Shown here: one piece after another, positions 20,263-28,358 of the stretch
How the letters are laid out: the number at the start of each line of letters is the position of its first letter
How positions within the stretch are numbered: the stretch's first letter is position 1
Source: Ignavibacteriota bacterium
GTDB lineage: Bacteria; Bacteroidota; Ignavibacteria; Palsa-1295
Direction of reading: 5' to 3'
DNA: 64,000 nt
NCBI GenBank assembly: GCA_963787835.1
Contig: CAWBEI010000005.1
Span: 80,998 to 144,997, forward strand
The notes under the pieces: model-generated
The model's input: only the letters and a program-made list of their open reading frames with translations
Database searches by the model: none
Told to the model about the DNA's origin: nothing
Made by a program: the position numbers and the translations under genes

Positions 20263-21972
20263 ATGAGTTGGATCCTCGGCGCCTTCGGACGAATTTCCCC
20301 GGATCTTGAGAACAAGATTCGGAAGTTCGCGCAAAATTCTTTGCTTGAATTTCAGGATGACCAGCTATTGCTTCTTGCCGGAGGAATTCCGGAGACATGT
20401 AAGCATGATTCCACGGCGTCGGAAGTGTGGGCAATCTGCGGGTTAGGGATTGAACACTCAGGCGCTGGATACGGCTTGATGGAAAAGCCACATTGGGAAG
20501 TTCGGCTAAAATCTAAGGCAAACACCCGTTCACTCGAAGGTCAATTCGCAGGCATAAGTTACCATGATCGTTGCTTAACTCTCTTTACCGATCGAATTGG
20601 CTCTCGCGATCTATGGTATTGCACAATTAGTGGAGTTACGTTATTCTCGACGCGGGCGGATTGGCTTGCTCGCTTATCTGGCAACAACGAACTTGATCTC
20701 AATGGGTTTGGAGCCCGATGGCTGTTCTATTATCAAGTGTCGACGGGAAGTATAATAAAAAATATTGAGAGGCTTGGCCCTGGTGCTGTGGTAACGATCT
20801 CTTCGAGCGGGATTTCGACGGAGCGAGCGAACTGGCTTCCTCAACCATCTCAATTTCAATTTTCAAAAGTACTGGAAGAACTCAGCACTTTTCCATTTCG
20901 GTCGGGGCGTCGATTATCACTCAGTCTTTCTGGAGGGTTAGATTCCCGGTTGCTGTTTTCGATCCTTCTTCATGCAAAGGGCGAGTGGGATGTGCATACC
21001 TTCGGGCCCCCTGATCATCCCGATGTGACGATCGCTGAGCAGATCGCAAAAACCTTTGGTGTATCTCACCAAGCGTTCTATATCGATCCAGTTGAAGACC
21101 CTGATCTCGAAAATAAAGTTAGGGATTATTGCGCCCAGGGGCTCCCTCTTCGACAAGCGTCACAGGTTCTGCAAGCTCAGTATTATCCAATGCTATATCG
21201 AGCTAATACGATCGTTATTGATGGCGGATTTGGCGAGGTAGCGCGCCGTCACATGTTCAATCGTCTGGCTTATCTTGGGAAGGGAGCGTTATCGCGACGT
21301 GATACGCAAGCGGTCTATCCGTATTTTACCCGCTTTCGGGCTGATTTCTTTTCGCCAGAGGTGAACGCGCTGCTTCGCGAAGGAGCAATGGATCAAATAA
21401 ATGCGCTGTGGGATGAAATGCCGGATCCCAATACGATCGGTTTTAGAAACTGGTTGGATATGATCGTGGTAAGATCCGAACTTCCCAATGCCAACGCGGC
21501 AGAGCAGGCTCGTATGGATCATTTTGTGCCGAGCTATATGCCATTCGTGCAGCCTTCACTGTTGAACGCGGTATTTGATATGCCCTTGAGGCGCCGGCAG
21601 GATAGCAGGGAAGTCCATGCGATCATTCACCGAAAGGAACGAAAACTCGAACGCTTCCCACTTATGACGAGCGATTGCACCATTCCATATTCGCTTTCAA
21701 CGATGCAAGCATTTGTTTATCGTAAGGTGAAGCGTTTACTTGGCAAAACATACCATGATCGCACCAGGGATCTCTTTCTACAACGGTTGCGTCCGATGAT
21801 CGAGGATCTTGCCGCATCCAACGAGGTGCTAACTTGCTCCCTCTATGACCAGCAAAAGGTAGGATCCATTGTCGATGGATATTTCGGAGGAAACAAAGCA
21901 TTGGGCGGGCAATTAGACTGGTGGCTGGGATTTGAGCTTTGGCGTAGCTCCCATTCTGACCGGCGGATGTGA
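20263..21972 (+). CDS. Asparagine synthetase B-like amidotransferase lacking the N-terminal Cys nucleophile
   Basis: N-terminus MSWILGAFG where AsnB has MCGI(L/A)G; PP-loop SLSGGLDSRLL; 569 aa. Confidence 0.6.
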   Translation: MSWILGAFGRISPDLENKIRKFAQNSLLEFQDDQLLLLAGGIPETCKHDSTASEVWAICGLGIEHSGAGYGLMEKPHWEVRLKSKANTRSLEGQFAGISYHDRCLTLFTDRIGSRDLWYCTISGVTLFSTRADWLARLSGNNELDLNGFGARWLFYYQVSTGSIIKNIERLGPGAVVTISSSGISTERANWLPQPSQFQFSKVLEELSTFPFRSGRRLSLSLSGGLDSRLLFSILLHAKGEWDVHTFGPPDHPDVTIAEQIAKTFGVSHQAFYIDPVEDPDLENKVRDYCAQGLPLRQASQVLQAQYYPMLYRANTIVIDGGFGEVARRHMFNRLAYLGKGALSRRDTQAVYPYFTRFRADFFSPEVNALLREGAMDQINALWDEMPDPNTIGFRNWLDMIVVRSELPNANAAEQARMDHFVPSYMPFVQPSLLNAVFDMPLRRRQDSREVHAIIHRKERKLERFPLMTSDCTIPYSLSTMQAFVYRKVKRLLGKTYHDRTRDLFLQRLRPMIEDLAASNEVLTCSLYDQQKVGSIVDGYFGGNKALGGQLDWWLGFELWRSSHSDRRM

Positions 21973-22011
21973 ATTGGTTGCAAAAAGTAAGCGTTACACT
22001 TACCTGCAATT

Positions 22012-22275
22012 ATGACATTAAACGAAATCCATAACGTCCGGGAAAAACTGCTGGCTGATCTCGATTCTATTACGGGCGCAGAAGAGCTTGAAGCGTTCAA
22101 GCTGGCGCATCTCACTCGCAAAGGGACGATCGCCGCAATGTTCGACGATCTCCGATCTGTTTCGAAGGAGGAGAAGCCGCTCGCTGGAAAAGAGCTAAAT
22201 CTGCTTCGCCAATCGGTTGAACAGCGATTCGCTGAAGTAGCTCAAGCACTAAATATTAAGAAAGAAGAGGAATGA
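22012..22275 (+). CDS. pheS N-terminal helical domain as a separate 87-aa ORF (out of frame with downstream pheS)
   Basis: GC-rich; KLAHLTRKGTIAAMFDDLRSVSKEEKPLAGKELN resembles the PheS N-terminal domain; stop overlaps the next ATG in a different frame. Confidence 0.45.
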   Translation: MTLNEIHNVREKLLADLDSITGAEELEAFKLAHLTRKGTIAAMFDDLRSVSKEEKPLAGKELNLLRQSVEQRFAEVAQALNIKKEEE

Positions 22276-23633
22276 TTATAATTAAAGAACCTCGAATTGA
22301 GCTAACTCCTAAACAGCTTGAAGAGTACAAAAAAATATACACTTCGGTAGCTGAGCAAGCCGGCTCTGTAAATAACCAAATGCTCACATATGGGCAACAA
22401 GCAAATCCTTATATTGTCAAGGAAATTGAAGAACTTGCCAAAGTTACTAATAATCTGAGCTATTCTAGTTCCGAAGTATACGTCACGTCCCAGACAATAG
22501 GAGAATTGCCTTTTTCTAATGCAATCCAATACTTTAGGAATGACTTAGCAGAATTCCAAGACCACTTTCAGAACTTACTCAATAATGTTCAGTCACCGGC
22601 TGATCTAGAAGTATCTCGTTTAACTCTTGAAGCTGAAAAAGGGCCAATTAAGTTTGTCGAGAAAGTAATTTTGGGAGGTGCCCCTAAAGCCGCCAAGAGA
22701 GAAATTGGAAGAAATCTCAATGAATTGAAGGTTATCTTGGAGCAAGAGTATCAGAATATTAAGTCTAAGTTAAAACCACTAATCAAATTAGATGCAGAAA
22801 TTGATCTGTCGATGCCAGCGCGGACGGTACCAGTCATAACTCCGGGACACGAGCATCCTTTGATGAAGACGCTGAACGAGATGATATCCATTTTCGAGCG
22901 CATGGGATTTGCCGTTGAATATGGGCCGGAGATCGAGGACGATGAGCATAATTTTGGCAAGCTGAATTTCGCGCCCGACCATCCTGCGCGAGATATGCAG
23001 GATACGTTTTTTGTGAAGCCTTCCTTCAATTATGTAGCGCCGGCGTCCTCGCCGGTTCCCCTTGCAGAGGGAAGGGGACAGGCGGGGACGCCTGCGCTAC
23101 AGCCATTACTATTGAGGACGCACACATCGCCAGTTCAGATTCGGCTGATGGAAAAGCAGAAGCCGCCCGTCCGGGCGATCATGCCGGGGCGGGTATATCG
23201 CAACGAAGCAGCAAGTGCTCGGAGTGCAGTTGCATTCTTCCAGTTAGAAGGACTTGTTATCGATAAGGGCGTTACGATGGCAGACCTAAAAGGCATACTG
23301 CTTTCCTTTGCAAGGCAGTTTTTTGGGAGCGATGCAAAGATCAGACTTCGCCCAAGTTTCTTCCCATTTACCGAGCCGAGCGCCGAAGTGGATGTAAGCT
23401 GTTACATCTGCGGCGGCAAAGGCTGCCGCGTATGCCAAAACACAGGATGGCTGGAAATATTGGGTTCCGGAATGGTCCATCCGAATGTGCTAAGAGCATG
23501 TGGAATCGATCCAGAAATATATACCGGCTACGCGTTCGGCCTCGGAATTGACCGCACGGCAATGATGCGTTATGGTGTCAGCGATATTCGGGATTTCTTC
23601 GAGAACGATTACCGATTTCTGGAACAATTTTAG
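22272..23633 (+). CDS. pheS: Phenylalanine--tRNA ligase alpha subunit with AT-rich N-terminal replacement segment and 23-aa repeat-encoded insertion
   Basis: Catalytic core HPARDMQDTFF, LLRTHTSPVQIR, FPFTEPSAEVD, GLGIDRTAMMRYGV. The first ~165 codons (22272-22770) are ~35% GC versus ~55% in the flanks. Codons 255-277 are encoded by a family D palindromic repeat. Confidence 0.85.
   Translation: MIIIKEPRIELTPKQLEEYKKIYTSVAEQAGSVNNQMLTYGQQANPYIVKEIEELAKVTNNLSYSSSEVYVTSQTIGELPFSNAIQYFRNDLAEFQDHFQNLLNNVQSPADLEVSRLTLEAEKGPIKFVEKVILGGAPKAAKREIGRNLNELKVILEQEYQNIKSKLKPLIKLDAEIDLSMPARTVPVITPGHEHPLMKTLNEMISIFERMGFAVEYGPEIEDDEHNFGKLNFAPDHPARDMQDTFFVKPSFNYVAPASSPVPLAEGRGQAGTPALQPLLLRTHTSPVQIRLMEKQKPPVRAIMPGRVYRNEAASARSAVAFFQLEGLVIDKGVTMADLKGILLSFARQFFGSDAKIRLRPSFFPFTEPSAEVDVSCYICGGKGCRVCQNTGWLEILGSGMVHPNVLRACGIDPEIYTGYAFGLGIDRTAMMRYGVSDIRDFFENDYRFLEQF
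23033..23101. repeat. Family D 69-bp palindromic element inserted in-frame within pheS
   Basis: tgtagcgccggcgtcctcgccggttcccc...ggggacgcctgcgctaca. A sibling copy lies intergenically at 46458..46526. 69 nt is 23 codons and is translated as VAPASSPVPLAEGRGQAGTPALQ. Confidence 0.7.
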
Positions 23634-23706
23634 CATAAAATATTCTGCGAGAACCAAACCTTCTGGGACATTGCTAATAGCAGGGAGCTTTCTATTCCGA
23701 ATCGTT

Positions 23707-24447
23707 ATGAAGCGAAATATCTTAATTTTCGGTGTTTTATTTTTTGCGGCATTCGCGATTGTTTTGAGCGGATGTTCTTCTTCAACATCTTCGCCAAGCG
23801 GTAATTCAAATCCCTTGCCGGGAGCGGGGAGCACGTTTACCTATACCTATACTTCTGTAGATACAAACGGCGTCACAAGCGCGCCCAGCGATTCTACTTA
23901 TATCATTCTGAGTGATTCCCTTACTTACCAGGGCAAAACCAATGTGCTTGAAGTGCAGGATGAGCACGGCGGAATTTCCTATTATCATCTGGAAGCAAAT
24001 GGCGACATCTCTATCTATCTCGATCTGAGTTCATTCCCGCTGCCGGTTGCATTAAGCACGAACTGGTTAGTACTTCCTATCGGAAGCAGTCTCGAGCAAA
24101 AGAATGTTCTGTTCGACTCCACCATAATGTTCCCGTATAATGGGACGAACACTGCGGTGGATGTATCCGTCCAGACGGATGCGAAAGATATGGGCCCCGC
24201 GACGATTTCAGCAGCGAACAATTCCTTTGCCTCGGAGAAGGGAGCTGTTATCGTGACTGCGTCCGCCTCTATCTTTGGAGGGTTCGTGCAGCTTGCCTCC
24301 CTTACGGAAACGATTTCTATTTGGTACTCAAAGCAACTCAAGTATTATCCTGAACGTCAGGATAAGCAGGTGCTCGGAGGTCTTCTGCTCGGTAATTCTA
24401 AAACGACATCCGACACCTATCTATTAAATTCCTATACGCTGAAATAA
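23707..24447 (+). CDS. Hypothetical lipoprotein
   Basis: MKRNILIFGVLFFAAFAIVLSGC lipobox; Ser/Thr-rich linker; 246 aa. Start trimmed to the signal-peptide Met. Confidence 0.55.
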   Translation: MKRNILIFGVLFFAAFAIVLSGCSSSTSSPSGNSNPLPGAGSTFTYTYTSVDTNGVTSAPSDSTYIILSDSLTYQGKTNVLEVQDEHGGISYYHLEANGDISIYLDLSSFPLPVALSTNWLVLPIGSSLEQKNVLFDSTIMFPYNGTNTAVDVSVQTDAKDMGPATISAANNSFASEKGAVIVTASASIFGGFVQLASLTETISIWYSKQLKYYPERQDKQVLGGLLLGNSKTTSDTYLLNSYTLK

Positions 24448-24450
24448 TTC

Positions 24451-25842
24451 TTAGCTTGTCGCGAGCGCTCCGTTCACGCTGGGATCCTTGGCGTATATTC
24501 CTTCCCGCACGATCTTTCCAAGAATGTCGATCGCGGTATCGACTTCCTCGATGGTATTATACATATAAAAACTTAGCCTGCAGCTTGCGGGAATATCCAG
24601 AGAGTGGTGTGCAAGCCCGGCACAGTGGCATCCCGCGCGGGACTCGACGCCAAATTCATTCAGGGCATTAGCAAGATCGAACGGAGAACGCCCGGCCACG
24701 TTAAAAGCGACTAAAGATGTACGCTTCTTTGCATCCATCGGTCCATATATTTGTATGCCAGGAATTTCTGAAATACGTTCGAGTGCGCTGCTTGTCAATG
24801 TTCGATTGTAATTGGTAATTCGTTCCATAGCCGCTCTCACATCCTCTCGCTCTATTTGTTTATCCGTCATGAAATAGGTATGCTCTTCGGGTGAGAGCAC
24901 AAGATCGAGCAATATTCGCAATGCCTGCGCGCTAACGATCGTGCCTAGAATGTTCGGTGTGCCGGCGCTAAATTTCCAGGGCAGTTCATTATAGTTGATA
25001 TTCGTGGGTGTCACCGATCCTGGTATGCCTGCCACCATATCTCCGCCATACAAGAATGGCCGCATCGAGGAGAGCAGTGCTTCCTTGCCATAGAGCGCTC
25101 CAATTCCAAAAGGAGCAAGTACTTTATGGAACGAAAAGGAAAGAAAATCCACATCGAGCGCTTCGACATCCACATAGGTACTTGGCACCAACTGCGCACC
25201 ATCGATGAGCAGATAGGAGCGGCGTTCGCCTGTCGGTTGTTCATAGCCGCTGGCATTTGCGATCGCTCGGATCTTCGAAATGGGATTTTTTGTGCCGAAA
25301 AAATTCGAAGCACCACTCGCGCATACGAGCTTTGTTCTGTTATCGACAAGGGAGGCCATGTGTTCCAGATCCAATTCTCCGGTCTGTTGATCCAAATTTA
25401 CAAGACGGTATTCTACATTGATCCCGAACTTCGGCAGGATCTCTCGGCACATTGCGTACCAGGGCACATAATTGGAGTTGTGCTCCATCATTGTGGTAAC
25501 GACGTTATCTCCATCGCGGAATTCCGTCATCAGTGAGTACATGATCGCATTATGTGCCTCGGTAGTGTTGCGATAGAGAGCGATATTTTTTCGGCTTTTG
25601 GCCCCGATAAATGCTGCGATCGTATCGAAGGACGATTCGAACAGCGTCGTCATGGCGCGGGAGGCGTTCGACTGCCCTCGATGAACATTCTCGTAATCCG
25701 GCGAAAGCTCGCGAAAAAGATCGGCTAACATTTTCGGTGCCTGGGTGCTGGCGGCATTATTGGTGACGATCCGGCCTTTAGTAATCGCTGGAAAATGTTT
25801 GCGAATCGCTTGAACGTCAAGGGTACAATCGGTTTCAACCAT
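24451..25842 (-). CDS. SufS-like cysteine desulfurase (class V aminotransferase fold)
   Basis: SFSFHKVLAPFGIGALYGK (PLP-Lys region) and C-terminal RAGCHCAGLAHHSLDIP...SFYMYNTIEEVD (active-site Cys loop). Confidence 0.7.
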   Translation of the reverse strand: MVETDCTLDVQAIRKHFPAITKGRIVTNNAASTQAPKMLADLFRELSPDYENVHRGQSNASRAMTTLFESSFDTIAAFIGAKSRKNIALYRNTTEAHNAIMYSLMTEFRDGDNVVTTMMEHNSNYVPWYAMCREILPKFGINVEYRLVNLDQQTGELDLEHMASLVDNRTKLVCASGASNFFGTKNPISKIRAIANASGYEQPTGERRSYLLIDGAQLVPSTYVDVEALDVDFLSFSFHKVLAPFGIGALYGKEALLSSMRPFLYGGDMVAGIPGSVTPTNINYNELPWKFSAGTPNILGTIVSAQALRILLDLVLSPEEHTYFMTDKQIEREDVRAAMERITNYNRTLTSSALERISEIPGIQIYGPMDAKKRTSLVAFNVAGRSPFDLANALNEFGVESRAGCHCAGLAHHSLDIPASCRLSFYMYNTIEEVDTAIDILGKIVREGIYAKDPSVNGALATS

Positions 25843-25931
25843 CGGGTATTTATAGGATAATTTGGGTATAATATAACGTTAAGTTTTAGAGTTGGGCAAA
25901 CGTTCCGCCCTGAATTACGTTATTTTGAATA

Positions 25932-28358
25932 ATGCGCATCTCATTAAACTGGCTTTCGGAATATATTTCGGTCCCATTCACCCCCGAGGAATTGGACCAT
26001 CGTCTGACCATGCTCGGCATCGAGGTCGAGTCTGTCGAGCGCGTCGGCGAGCGATGGGATAAGGTCATTGTTGGCGAAGTGCTGGAGGTAACACCGCACC
26101 CGAATGCGGATAAACTTCGGCTTACACGAGTCTCGATCGGATCGGGAGAGCCGCTTGGAATAGTCTGCGGTGCTCCTAATGTGAGGGCAGGCCTGAAGGT
26201 CGCGGTTGCAACGATTGGGGCAGATCTTGGTGGTGGCCTTGTGATAAAGAAAGCCAAAATTCGTGGCGAAGCAAGCGAGGGCATGATATGCTCCGAACGA
26301 GAACTCGGCGTATCCCAAAATCATGAAGGAATTTGGGAATTGCCTTCTGAAACGACCGTCGGCATAGCACTCGCGGATGCTCTTGGCTTGAGAGACGTAA
26401 TATTCGAAGTTGGTATTACGCCTAATCGCGCAGATTGTCTCAGCCATATTGGGATTGCTCGTGAGATTCGGGCAATAACAGGGGAGTCAGTTCGGTGGCC
26501 GAAAGTATCAATAGATGGAAAGGGTGGTGCAGTCGCCAACCAGGTTCGAATTAATCTTCCGCAACCGGAGCTTTGCCCGAGATATGTGGCAAAATTAGTC
26601 ACAGGCGTGACGATCGCACCATCTCCGGATTGGCTTAAGCGGAGATTGGAAGCAGTTGGGCTACGGCCAATTAATAACGTGGTCGATGTCACAAATTTTG
26701 TATTGATGGAATGCGGACATCCGCTCCATGCTTTCGATTTTGATGTGGTCGAAAACGGGCAGATAGAAGTTTGCACCGCCGGTAGTTTTGCCGATGAATT
26801 CGTAACGCTCGACGGCAAGAAAAGGAAAATGCCGGCGGATGCGCTGCTCATCACCGATGGCAAAAAGCCTCTCGGAATTGCGGGCATTATGGGAGGCGAG
26901 AATTCGGAGATACGAGAGAGGACTCGGAATGTCCTCATCGAATCCGCTTATTTCAACCCAACCTCTATTCGTAGAACGGCGAAGCAACTTGGCCTTTCGA
27001 GCGATGCTTCCTATCGGTTCGAGCGTGGCGCTGATTTCAATATTTTGGAATATGCCGCTGAAAGAGCTGCGCAAATGATCACTGAATTAGCTGGCGGAGC
27101 GATAGTAGAGGGAATCGTCGATGAAAACCCCAACCCGTTAAAAAATAAAGAGTTACGGTTTCGACCTTCGAGGGCAAACAGCCTGCTTGGCATGACTGTT
27201 TCCTCCGATAAAATGGCTGAGATATTCCAACGGCTTGAGATAGAAGTGCAGAATTCTGAATCAGCCGAATGGCAGCTTACTTCTCCATCCTATCGTGTTG
27301 ATCTTGAGCGAGAAGAAGATGCGATCGAGGAAGTTGCGCGCATCGTTGGTTATGATGAAATTCCAACGAGTACGTTCGAGCGTGCTCCGCTCGGCGGCAC
27401 GCGCGATCCGTTAAAGCCCAGAGACTTCGATACGCTTGTCCGGAGCACACTCCTATCACTTGGGGCGAGCGAATGTATCTCCGTCCCCTTAGTCAGCGAA
27501 AAAAGCTCGCGGCTATTTCACGAACAGCCGGTTGCGCTTATCAACCCTCTGAACCTCGAACGCGACCACATGCGTACCAGCGTGGCGATCAATTTGCTGG
27601 AATCAGCGGGCATAAGTGAGCGATTCGGGGCTGCTGGCCAGCGTATCTTCGAGATCGGAAATGTATTTCATTATTCAGAGAAGCCGGAGCAGCTCGGTCA
27701 TATTTCCGAGAGGCAGGAGTTAGGTGTATTACTATCCGGGGTTCAGGAGCCAAAGACTCCCTATAACACTCAAGCGATCAAAGCCGATATTTTTCTTCTG
27801 AAAGGGATGGCTGAGGCTCTTCTATCCAGGCTTGGGATTCGAGACTGGCAATATGAGGCATCCAGCGATGCAATATTTGATGCCTCACAGTCGCTAATCA
27901 TCAATGTTGGTGGCGGGCGTGTATGTCGTCTCGGAAAACTTTTGCCCGAAATTATTAAGGAGTATGATCTACGAAATGATGTCTGGGTTGCGCTGTTCGA
28001 TCATGGCGAGTTATTCATGTTAACGCGGGGCTTGCTTGAAAAGCCTCGTGCCGTGAAGCTATTGCCGAAATATCCCTCTGTTGAGCGCGATATTGCGATC
28101 GTGATCTCTGAAGGAATTCATGTGAAGAATATCACGGATGCGATATGTGCATCCGCATCGAAAGAGATCCTGAGGCAGGTTTCTTTATTTGATGAATTCC
28201 AATCGAAGGAAATGAAATTGTCCCATGAGCGAAGCCTGGCATTTCATCTTGTTTTTCGGTCCGATGAGCGCACGTTGGAGGAACATGAAGTCGATGTGCT
28301 ATTTAGTTTGATAATTAAGCGATTAGAGGGCGAACTTCACGCACGACTTCGTGTTTAA
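25932..28358 (+). CDS. pheT: Phenylalanine--tRNA ligase beta subunit
   Basis: 808 aa; MRISLNWLSEYI N-terminus, tRNA-binding, B3/4, B5 and FDX-ACB-like regions in order. Confidence 0.92.
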   Translation: MRISLNWLSEYISVPFTPEELDHRLTMLGIEVESVERVGERWDKVIVGEVLEVTPHPNADKLRLTRVSIGSGEPLGIVCGAPNVRAGLKVAVATIGADLGGGLVIKKAKIRGEASEGMICSERELGVSQNHEGIWELPSETTVGIALADALGLRDVIFEVGITPNRADCLSHIGIAREIRAITGESVRWPKVSIDGKGGAVANQVRINLPQPELCPRYVAKLVTGVTIAPSPDWLKRRLEAVGLRPINNVVDVTNFVLMECGHPLHAFDFDVVENGQIEVCTAGSFADEFVTLDGKKRKMPADALLITDGKKPLGIAGIMGGENSEIRERTRNVLIESAYFNPTSIRRTAKQLGLSSDASYRFERGADFNILEYAAERAAQMITELAGGAIVEGIVDENPNPLKNKELRFRPSRANSLLGMTVSSDKMAEIFQRLEIEVQNSESAEWQLTSPSYRVDLEREEDAIEEVARIVGYDEIPTSTFERAPLGGTRDPLKPRDFDTLVRSTLLSLGASECISVPLVSEKSSRLFHEQPVALINPLNLERDHMRTSVAINLLESAGISERFGAAGQRIFEIGNVFHYSEKPEQLGHISERQELGVLLSGVQEPKTPYNTQAIKADIFLLKGMAEALLSRLGIRDWQYEASSDAIFDASQSLIINVGGGRVCRLGKLLPEIIKEYDLRNDVWVALFDHGELFMLTRGLLEKPRAVKLLPKYPSVERDIAIVISEGIHVKNITDAICASASKEILRQVSLFDEFQSKEMKLSHERSLAFHLVFRSDERTLEEHEVDVLFSLIIKRLEGELHARLRV

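Follow-up and report, generated by a model that had tools for sequence, protein, structure and literature searches.

Both exchange and the formation of mosaics are known among aminoacyl-tRNA synthetase genes, and some synthetases are naturally split, such as the LeuRS of Aquifex aeolicus, whose alpha and beta pieces are encoded by two reading frames and are each indispensable. Displaced modules that are left beside an incoming one are known as the C-terminal orphans of Rhs and CdiA proteins. Here we describe a pheS gene, encoding the alpha subunit of phenylalanyl-tRNA synthetase (PheS), which is laid out as two overlapping open reading frames (ORFs) at positions 22,012 to 23,633 of a stretch of 64,000 nucleotides (the window, to which positions refer) from an Ignavibacteriota bacterium (GCA_963787835.1, contig CAWBEI010000005.1). 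The genome (G000) is a metagenome-derived Bacteroidota assembly with a total length of 3.57 Mb (7 contigs) and a completeness of 97.9%.

Bacterial PheS, as represented by the enzymes of M. tuberculosis (7K98 chain A) and T. thermophilus (2IY5 chain A), consists of an N-terminal helical domain (alpha1), a linker and a catalytic core (alpha2). Alpha1 binds the D-loop of the tRNA and is connected with alpha2 through a linker of 14 residues, as described in an excerpt of PMC8136816, and it is ordered only when tRNA is bound according to an excerpt of PMC8599791. The second reading frame of the locus in G000 (ORF2) shares the alpha1-linker-alpha2 organization and has a core recognized by PF01409 and TIGR00468, and pheT, the gene for the beta subunit, is present in the genome. 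The locus differs from the described enzymes in an extra N-terminal orphan extension of 85–89 amino acids (aa), here called X, in the strong divergence of the alpha1 domain of ORF2 (alpha1'; 21–22 bits in Pfam vs. 59 bits for the native copy), and in the presence of a second, native alpha1 as a separate upstream frame (ORF1).

We consider it probable, although well short of certain, that this arrangement arose when a foreign 5' module of pheS was acquired in this species alone, whereby the native alpha1 was displaced upstream and ORF2 became self-sufficient. The arrangement resembles type VI secretion system (T6SS) effector-immunity arrays as described in an excerpt of PMC5361080, in that an incoming homologous module would have taken the working position and the resident module stayed adjacent as an orphan. 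In contrast to these arrays and to the Rhs/CdiA orphans, the module concerned here is the N-terminal part of an essential housekeeping enzyme and not a polymorphic toxin tip, and the orphan lies upstream and, judging from the sequence, would be translated first.

Two reading frames and an AT-rich insert in pheS

ORF1 (87 aa; 22012..22275) and ORF2 (453 aa; 22272..23633) are both located on the + strand, with the ORF2 frame at -1 relative to ORF1 and an overlap of four bases. In the sequence itself this overlap reads ATGA (22272..22275, + strand), comprising the start codon of ORF2 and the stop codon of ORF1, and it presumably acts as a translational-coupling site. These coordinates, including the TGA that overlaps an ATG in another frame, were given exactly by the original prediction, which had also taken ORF1 for the N-terminal helical domain of PheS. 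ORF1 indeed matches Phe_tRNA-synt_N (PF02912) with an E-value of 5.3e-16 and 58.8 bits. Its codons 1–75 make up the native alpha1 domain, and codons 76–87 and the TGA are encoded by the insert described below. Upstream of its own ATG, the ORF2 frame is open for only four codons, as a TAA is present at 22257. ORF2 contains X, alpha1', a linker and the native catalytic core in that order. The core (residues 178–453) matches PF01409 (tRNA-synt_2d) with an E-value of 2.3e-95 and 319.2 bits (cut-off 19.8), and ORF2 scores 303.4 bits against the PheS equivalog TIGR00468 (cut-off 237.45).

ORF2 is the only match to PF01409 in the whole genome, and as the single PheS core it must therefore supply the working alpha subunit. 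ORF2 alone is predicted to be a full-length PheS alpha subunit (alpha1', linker and alpha2) with an N-terminal extension; aminoacylation is inferred only, from the presence of a single core in a 97.9%-complete genome. With a synthetase gene in two adjacent frames, the locus is similar to the naturally split aminoacyl-tRNA synthetases, but ORF2 holds every domain and the pieces would be redundant rather than complementary. A naturally split synthetase was therefore rejected as an explanation, since ORF2 has its own alpha1, which ORF1 only duplicates. A limited search of the aminoacyl-tRNA synthetase literature yielded no report of a split pheS gene.

Comparison with related genomes showed that the AT-rich part of the locus is confined to G000. 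Using ORF2 as a query, pheS was found in 30 of 31 genomes, the sole miss being G013 (85% complete), and all matches outside G000 begin at a query residue of at least 78. The 11 same-genus pheS loci that were read all consist of one continuous frame, starting with MTLNE as in ORF1, and lack the AT-rich segment. A DNA alignment with five same-genus loci displays one clean block of approximately 517 extra bases, at a position where the relatives carry a variable linker of about 45 bp. Based on this alignment and on the steps in base composition, the insert was delimited to 22237..22798 (+ strand; ~562 bp), where it replaces the ~45-bp linker of the relatives, and its position is exactly the linker between alpha1 and alpha2. 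ORF1 is 82% identical to the first 87 residues of the protein of the closest relative and keeps all 39 genus-invariant columns of the N-terminal domain up to E75. Similarity ends after E75, and the 5' edge of the insert was therefore placed at 22237. The closest relative (locus L002) has the same Asn-synthase-like gene upstream (20263..21972, + strand; PF00733, E 2.9e-7), and the 3' end of this gene aligns with the L002 DNA upstream of pheS, which indicates that the 5' flank is native. On the other side, IDLSMPAR is the motif with which the native alpha2 core (22799..23633, + strand) begins, and directly after the junction the sequence is again that specific to the genus (MPARTVP..GHEHPLMKTLNEM), with a nonsynonymous divergence (dN) of the core to relatives of 0.030–0.039. 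Since the 3' junction lies at the first alpha2 motif and is immediately followed by genus sequence, it is a junction in register between two pheS genes.

In the original prediction ORF1 was regarded as a relic. It is the native N-terminus, as supposed; the term would imply a putative loss of function, and ORF1 shows no decay. The dN of ORF1 to G014 (0.072) is the lowest of six pairs compared, and with G006 as the reference ORF1 is not accelerated in comparison with G014 (0.100 vs. 0.107). Synonymous sites are saturated between these species, so that a dN/dS test for decay of ORF1 is uninformative on timing. Between G000 and G014, synonymous differences amount to 46.2 at 53.8 sites in the alpha1 region (22012–22236) and to 106 at 165.8 sites in the core; they are denser in alpha1, where dN is low, and the numbers are small.

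The guanine-plus-cytosine (GC) content is 0.507 at 22012–22236, 0.366 at 22237–22790 and 0.522 at 22791–23633, with abrupt steps at approximately 22237–22245 and 22795–22800. The contrast had been noticed before, with figures of ~35% vs. ~55% that should read ~37% vs. 51–52%; the segment then singled out (22272–22770) has a GC content of 0.375. An equally high AT content occurs in just 0.035% of the 554-bp segments of the window. The GC content at third codon positions of ORF2 codons 1–173 is 0.335, and a value as low as this was reached by 0.67% of 32,176 sampled windows of 173 codons from the long ORFs of the genome. Read backwards from the 3' junction, the frame of ORF2 is free of stops for 179 codons; none of 20,000 shuffled versions of the insert had an open stretch this long, and the five remaining frames contain 6–24 stops. 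The insert truly codes for protein and is read in the frame of the core.

The second N-terminal domain and the orphan extension

The AT-rich part of ORF2 had been described as having no resemblance to the upstream fragment. This is not the case, as ORF2 residues ~85–175 represent a divergent copy of the same domain. Alpha1' and the linker (22539..22790, + strand) were recognized as a second, AT-rich N-terminal domain by PF02912, hhalign, a custom hidden Markov model (HMM) and an AlphaFold2 (AF2) model. With Pfam, Phe_tRNA-synt_N is found at ORF2 residues 108–168 with 21.2 bits, which is borderline and just below the gathering cut-off of 22.3; in a scan of the whole genome the same site scored 22.1 bits (22.5 with neighbours). 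The genome contains exactly two Phe_tRNA-synt_N domains, both at the pheS locus. A profile of the N-terminal regions of 11 relatives aligned to ORF2 residues 99–181 with hhalign at an E-value of 8e-5 (probability 61%, 24% identity). An HMM built from 103 Bacteroidota-type N-domains gave 32.7 bits for ORF2 residues 88–175, a score which none of 1000 shuffles reached, and 94.7 bits for the native ORF1. In an alignment of 79 sequences, alpha1' retains the phylum-wide invariant residues G146 and N150.

The AF2 model was built on this 79-row alignment and has a mean predicted local distance difference test (pLDDT) score of 79; an earlier alignment of 12 rows was unusable (pLDDT 44.5). ORF2 residues 81–170 are modelled with a pLDDT of 84–93 as helices spanning residues 81–104, 109–136 and 139–167. 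In structure comparisons the ORF2 model matches full-length PheS alpha chains over residues ~85–449 with Z scores of 27–30. The PheS chains with an ordered N-terminal domain (e.g., 7k98_A, 9drv_D and 6p8t_G) align from model residue 84–90, which corresponds to their own residue ~1, with Z scores of 28–30; the root-mean-square deviation of ~20 Å in the chain alignments is due to the flexible orientation of the two domains to each other. On sequence and model evidence, alpha1' is a complete but very divergent copy of alpha1 (ORF2 residues ~85–175). Its distance to the 103 N-domains compared is roughly uniform. The top 30 matches are from other Bacteroidota (30–40 bits, 25–41% identity), with AT-rich lineages scoring best, and the N-domains of its own genus are the least similar, with 22–29 bits in 7 out of 11 cases and no match in the remaining four. 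No alignment of alpha1' with the native copy could be obtained from the DNA, and a search with ORF2 residues 90–172 in the protein collection returned the query itself only.

The extension X (ORF2 residues 1 to ~85–89; 22272..22538, + strand) is not recognizable as an alpha1 domain. Against the N-domain HMM it scores 1.3 bits, a value equalled by 131 of 1000 shuffles, and hhalign gave an E-value of 0.45. In the AF2 model it is predicted, at low confidence (pLDDT 31–71), to form two helices. A word search of 5.8 billion proteins with ORF2 residues 1–175 recovered the query only. A phmmer search of 1.84 billion representatives gave a sole match (P0002) to a repetitive surface protein of 1181 aa, which was matched in eight repeated stretches and was judged spurious. 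The insert had no match in phage records, viral contigs or metagenome contigs, one match at an E-value of 0.5 in plasmids, no usable match in the ESM Atlas, and no match at E < 0.09 in PHROGs and PADLOC. In tblastx and blastn comparisons, X had no similarity to approximately 100 pheS loci with flanks or to the native upstream DNA.

Among the 35 genomes of the family, the first 100 residues of ORF2 occur in one, which is G000 itself. The original prediction had considered that the segment might be an ordinary lineage-specific domain conserved in relatives; it is not conserved, and nothing comparable was found in 400 other genomes of the phylum. In this phylum sample, 33 of the 401 genomes matched a query of 173 aa when G000 is included, and the 32 other matches are weak (E 3e-5 to 9e-3) and mostly confined to alpha1'. 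Matches that reach ORF2 residues 19–32 in G166, G349, G357, G381 and G401 extend across stop codons into rplT, which lies upstream, and were dismissed as alignment overrun. One further genome, G117, has a weak match to residues 17–131 (E 0.0066) in an open frame of 249 aa. X is thus an apparent orphan, having no relative in any of the sequence collections searched.

Origin of the insert

According to the explanation that we favour, approximately 560 bp of foreign coding DNA would have entered pheS at the alpha1-alpha2 linker in this one species. The segment would be the 5' module of the pheS gene of another organism, consisting of a gene tail with its stop, a start codon, X and a whole alpha1, and the sequence evidence favours an unsampled AT-rich organism as its putative source. 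The 3' junction would have formed in register at the first conserved alpha2 motif and the 5' junction by illegitimate joining after native codon 75. The native alpha1 would not have been deleted but pushed upstream, where it persists as the 87-aa frame. The original prediction of a recombinational replacement of the 5' part of pheS by foreign DNA is supported and essentially right, as the insert is absent from relatives and has a foreign-like composition, with the qualification that the native domain was displaced and only a linker of ~45 bp was replaced. Integration with one homologous and one illegitimate end is a route described in an excerpt of PMC3240628 as homology-facilitated illegitimate recombination. 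The likeness lies in the foreign DNA, in one homologous and one illegitimate join and in a small deletion in the recipient, which here is the ~45-bp linker; the difference is that here the anchor is untraceable, with native sequence right at the junction, and that no donor was found. When the junctions are set against this route, the 3' junction is in register at IDLSMPAR and the 5' junction follows codon 75 without homology; with no donor, the anchor is undefined.

Several observations weigh against this explanation. The foreign origin is deduced from composition and from the lack of the insert in relatives, and no donor was found in the searches. Only very short homology exists at the 3' junction, and as alpha1' and the native copy do not align as DNA, a long anchor as in classical homology-facilitated recombination would be hypothetical. 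Furthermore, AT-rich patches are not rare in this genome, which contains 218 islands below 39% GC. Only 13 of these 218 islands are located inside ORFs of which the remainder has a GC content of at least 47%, and among the 13 pheS is the sole identified housekeeping gene; seven ORFs from six regions, scanned from the other 12 islands, comprise four surface proteins with PKD domains or type IX secretion system (T9SS) tails and three proteins without a family match. Finally, the lack of decay fits a recent event and continued selection on a functional ORF1 equally well, the latter of which is not predicted if ORF1 is redundant.

The possibility that the locus is an assembly chimera or a sequencing artefact can practically be dismissed, even though G000 is metagenome-derived (7 contigs) and the protein collection contains ORF2 as a singleton (1 member, 1 contig). 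Soil metagenome runs contain the sequence: contigs (short-read unitigs) of four soil runs, all belonging to one study, were mapped over 21700–23300 at low depth, and these runs possibly include the source sample of G000, so that their agreement represents consistency and not independent replication. The 5' junction with the ATGA is crossed by unitigs of runs X1 (record 1, 22184–22503) and X3 (record 6, 22184–22334), and the 3' junction by unitigs of runs X1 (record 2, 22722–22872) and X4 (record 10, 22763–22913), all with 0 differences. No indels or joints were listed for the unitigs mapped over this interval. As the unitigs bridge both junctions without differences, including the one near 22270 for which the original prediction had proposed a check of the assembly and had allowed for a sequencing frameshift, a simple frameshift error or an assembly chimera is excluded; the insert is also in frame and open for 179 codons. 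It has also been considered that an ancestral PheS of ~540 aa (alpha1, X, alpha1' and alpha2) carried an in-frame insertion domain and was split later by a one-base indel near 22260–22272, or that a programmed -1 frameshift still joins the frames. Given the TAA at 22257, which leaves four open codons upstream of the ATG, and the ORF1 stop at 22275, one indel in a stretch of ~13 bases would fuse the frames. We regard this as unlikely, as the unitigs of two soil runs match the assembly exactly over 22184–22334, which leaves no sequencing indel, as the overlap is a classic ATGA coupling arrangement, and as no X XXY YYZ heptamer was noticed in 22258–22275. A later split would also leave the source of X and alpha1' to be explained.

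A transposon-like or excisable element is decidedly unlikely. This idea is based on an exact 9-bp direct repeat, AATATTAAG (repeat family D6), of which copy 1 (22252..22260, + strand) encodes N-I-K in the ORF1 frame and copy 2 (22755..22763, + strand), 503 bp downstream, encodes N-I-K in the ORF2 frame. The repeat would be the target-site duplication of a 494-bp element that landed in an AT-rich native linker, and a deletion between the copies would restore one continuous PheS of about normal length. By our own post hoc estimate, an in-frame repeat pair in both junction zones arises by chance in ~0.5–1% of cases. However, three exact 9-mer pairs in 1.1 kb are about the chance level, there are no terminal inverted repeats around the insert, no second copy is present in the genome, and no transposase or phage family was detected. 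The AT-rich DNA extends 15 and 35 bp past the repeats on either side, and an element would have to include a PheS domain whose end falls exactly on the homologous position. The mapped soil contigs, which are of very low depth, show no joined (excised) form. A role of the 9-bp repeat as target-site duplication or excision site is therefore unlikely. An insertion sequence or a miniature inverted-repeat transposable element was rejected likewise, given the lack of terminal inverted repeats, the single copy and a direct repeat at chance level only, and an intron or intein was rejected too, as there was no Rfam (ribozyme) match at E <= 1 in 21800–23000 and no intein or endonuclease Pfam family. A tandem duplication within the gene, in which the native 5' region was copied and the downstream copy diverged fast, would account for the two alpha1 domains in tandem and for three units of similar length (87, ~89 and ~84 aa), and a weak 19-nt match of 84% identity exists between 22082 and 22312. 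It is nevertheless very improbable. Alpha1' is closer to the alpha1 of other lineages than to that of its own genus, the GC content falls from 0.51 to 0.37 with sharp edges, and X is neither an alpha1 domain nor similar to native upstream DNA, and together these observations argue against an internal duplication.

Expression, significance and surroundings of the locus

An ATGA overlap is the usual arrangement for coupling of termination and reinitiation, and the sequence suggests that the overlap probably couples translation of ORF1 and ORF2. The native pheS promoter would drive one transcript, on which ribosomes would translate ORF1, terminate at the TGA within ATGA and reinitiate at the overlapping ATG. 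The ORF2 product (X, alpha1', linker and native alpha2) would pair with PheT, and alpha1' would provide the arm for binding to the D-loop of the tRNA. ORF1 probably encodes a redundant product and may have been kept intact because the event was recent, or because its translation feeds ribosomes to the ORF2 start. A scan for sigma-70 promoters and terminators gave hits at shuffle level, the sigma-70 model being ill-suited to Bacteroidota. No canonical X XXY YYZ slippery heptamer was seen by eye in 22257–22275. A possible remnant start, ATGAC.TTA at 22540, was spotted by eye one base out of frame; it was considered too weak and was not used.

We think it rather improbable that the arrangement is functional instead of a recent accident, with a free native alpha1 arm next to a PheS that has a xenologous arm and an appendage of 85 aa. 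If so, the arm swap or the appendage could alter the contact with tRNA-Phe or with an inhibitor, for example to evade a factor directed against the native alpha1, a role in trans as decoy or tRNA-binding cofactor would be conceivable for the free alpha1, and the full conservation of ORF1 despite its redundancy would reflect selection. A predicted complex of ORF2 residues 1–180 with ORF1 scored 0.00, which without controls is evidence neither way.

If the favoured explanation of a foreign 5' module is correct, the locus would represent an intermediate that was caught intact, in which an essential gene carries a foreign 5' module and the old and new tRNA-binding domains stand in tandem with a start-stop overlap. 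The alpha1-alpha2 linker of PheS would then be a permissive seam for module exchange, and a highly divergent alpha1 (~25% identity to the native domain) is apparently sufficient for life in this species. The locus could serve as a natural experiment on the ability of alpha1 to function in trans and on the extent to which its sequence may vary. As the case rests on a single metagenome-derived genome, its generality is low.

Several minor observations concern AT-rich DNA elsewhere and the surroundings of pheS. A number of AT-rich islands in the genome are C-terminal parts of surface proteins with PKD and T9SS-sorting domains, of which the remainder has a normal GC content (e.g., L107 at C2:1495134-1497223, L110 and L112), which suggests frequent exchange of such gene ends. 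The other strong AT-rich island of the window (54115–55358; minimum GC content 0.362) comprises a hydrophobic-looking ORF of 228 aa (54172–54858) and intergenic DNA. Within the pheS core, a second in-frame insertion at 23033–23101 forms a loop of 20–30 aa (VAPASSPVP...) that is present in 5 of 12 aligned same-genus sequences. In the single-contig genome of another member of the genus (locus L014, G001:C1:3290500-3295000), a simple frameshift in the variable core loop, either a sequencing error or a real lesion, divides pheS into two frames (201 and 210 aa), and the alpha1-alpha2 linker of this locus lacks the insert.

The pheS gene described here is located outside the infC-rpmI-rplT-pheS-pheT operon known from class-level relatives. 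In the region 20263–28358, pheS and pheT are separated by a gene for a 291-aa protein without a Pfam family and by a class-V aminotransferase gene on the opposite strand. The pheT gene (25932..28358, + strand) is complete and encodes a beta subunit with all five Pfam domains (B3_4, tRNA_synthFbeta, FDX-ACB, B5 and tRNA_bind).

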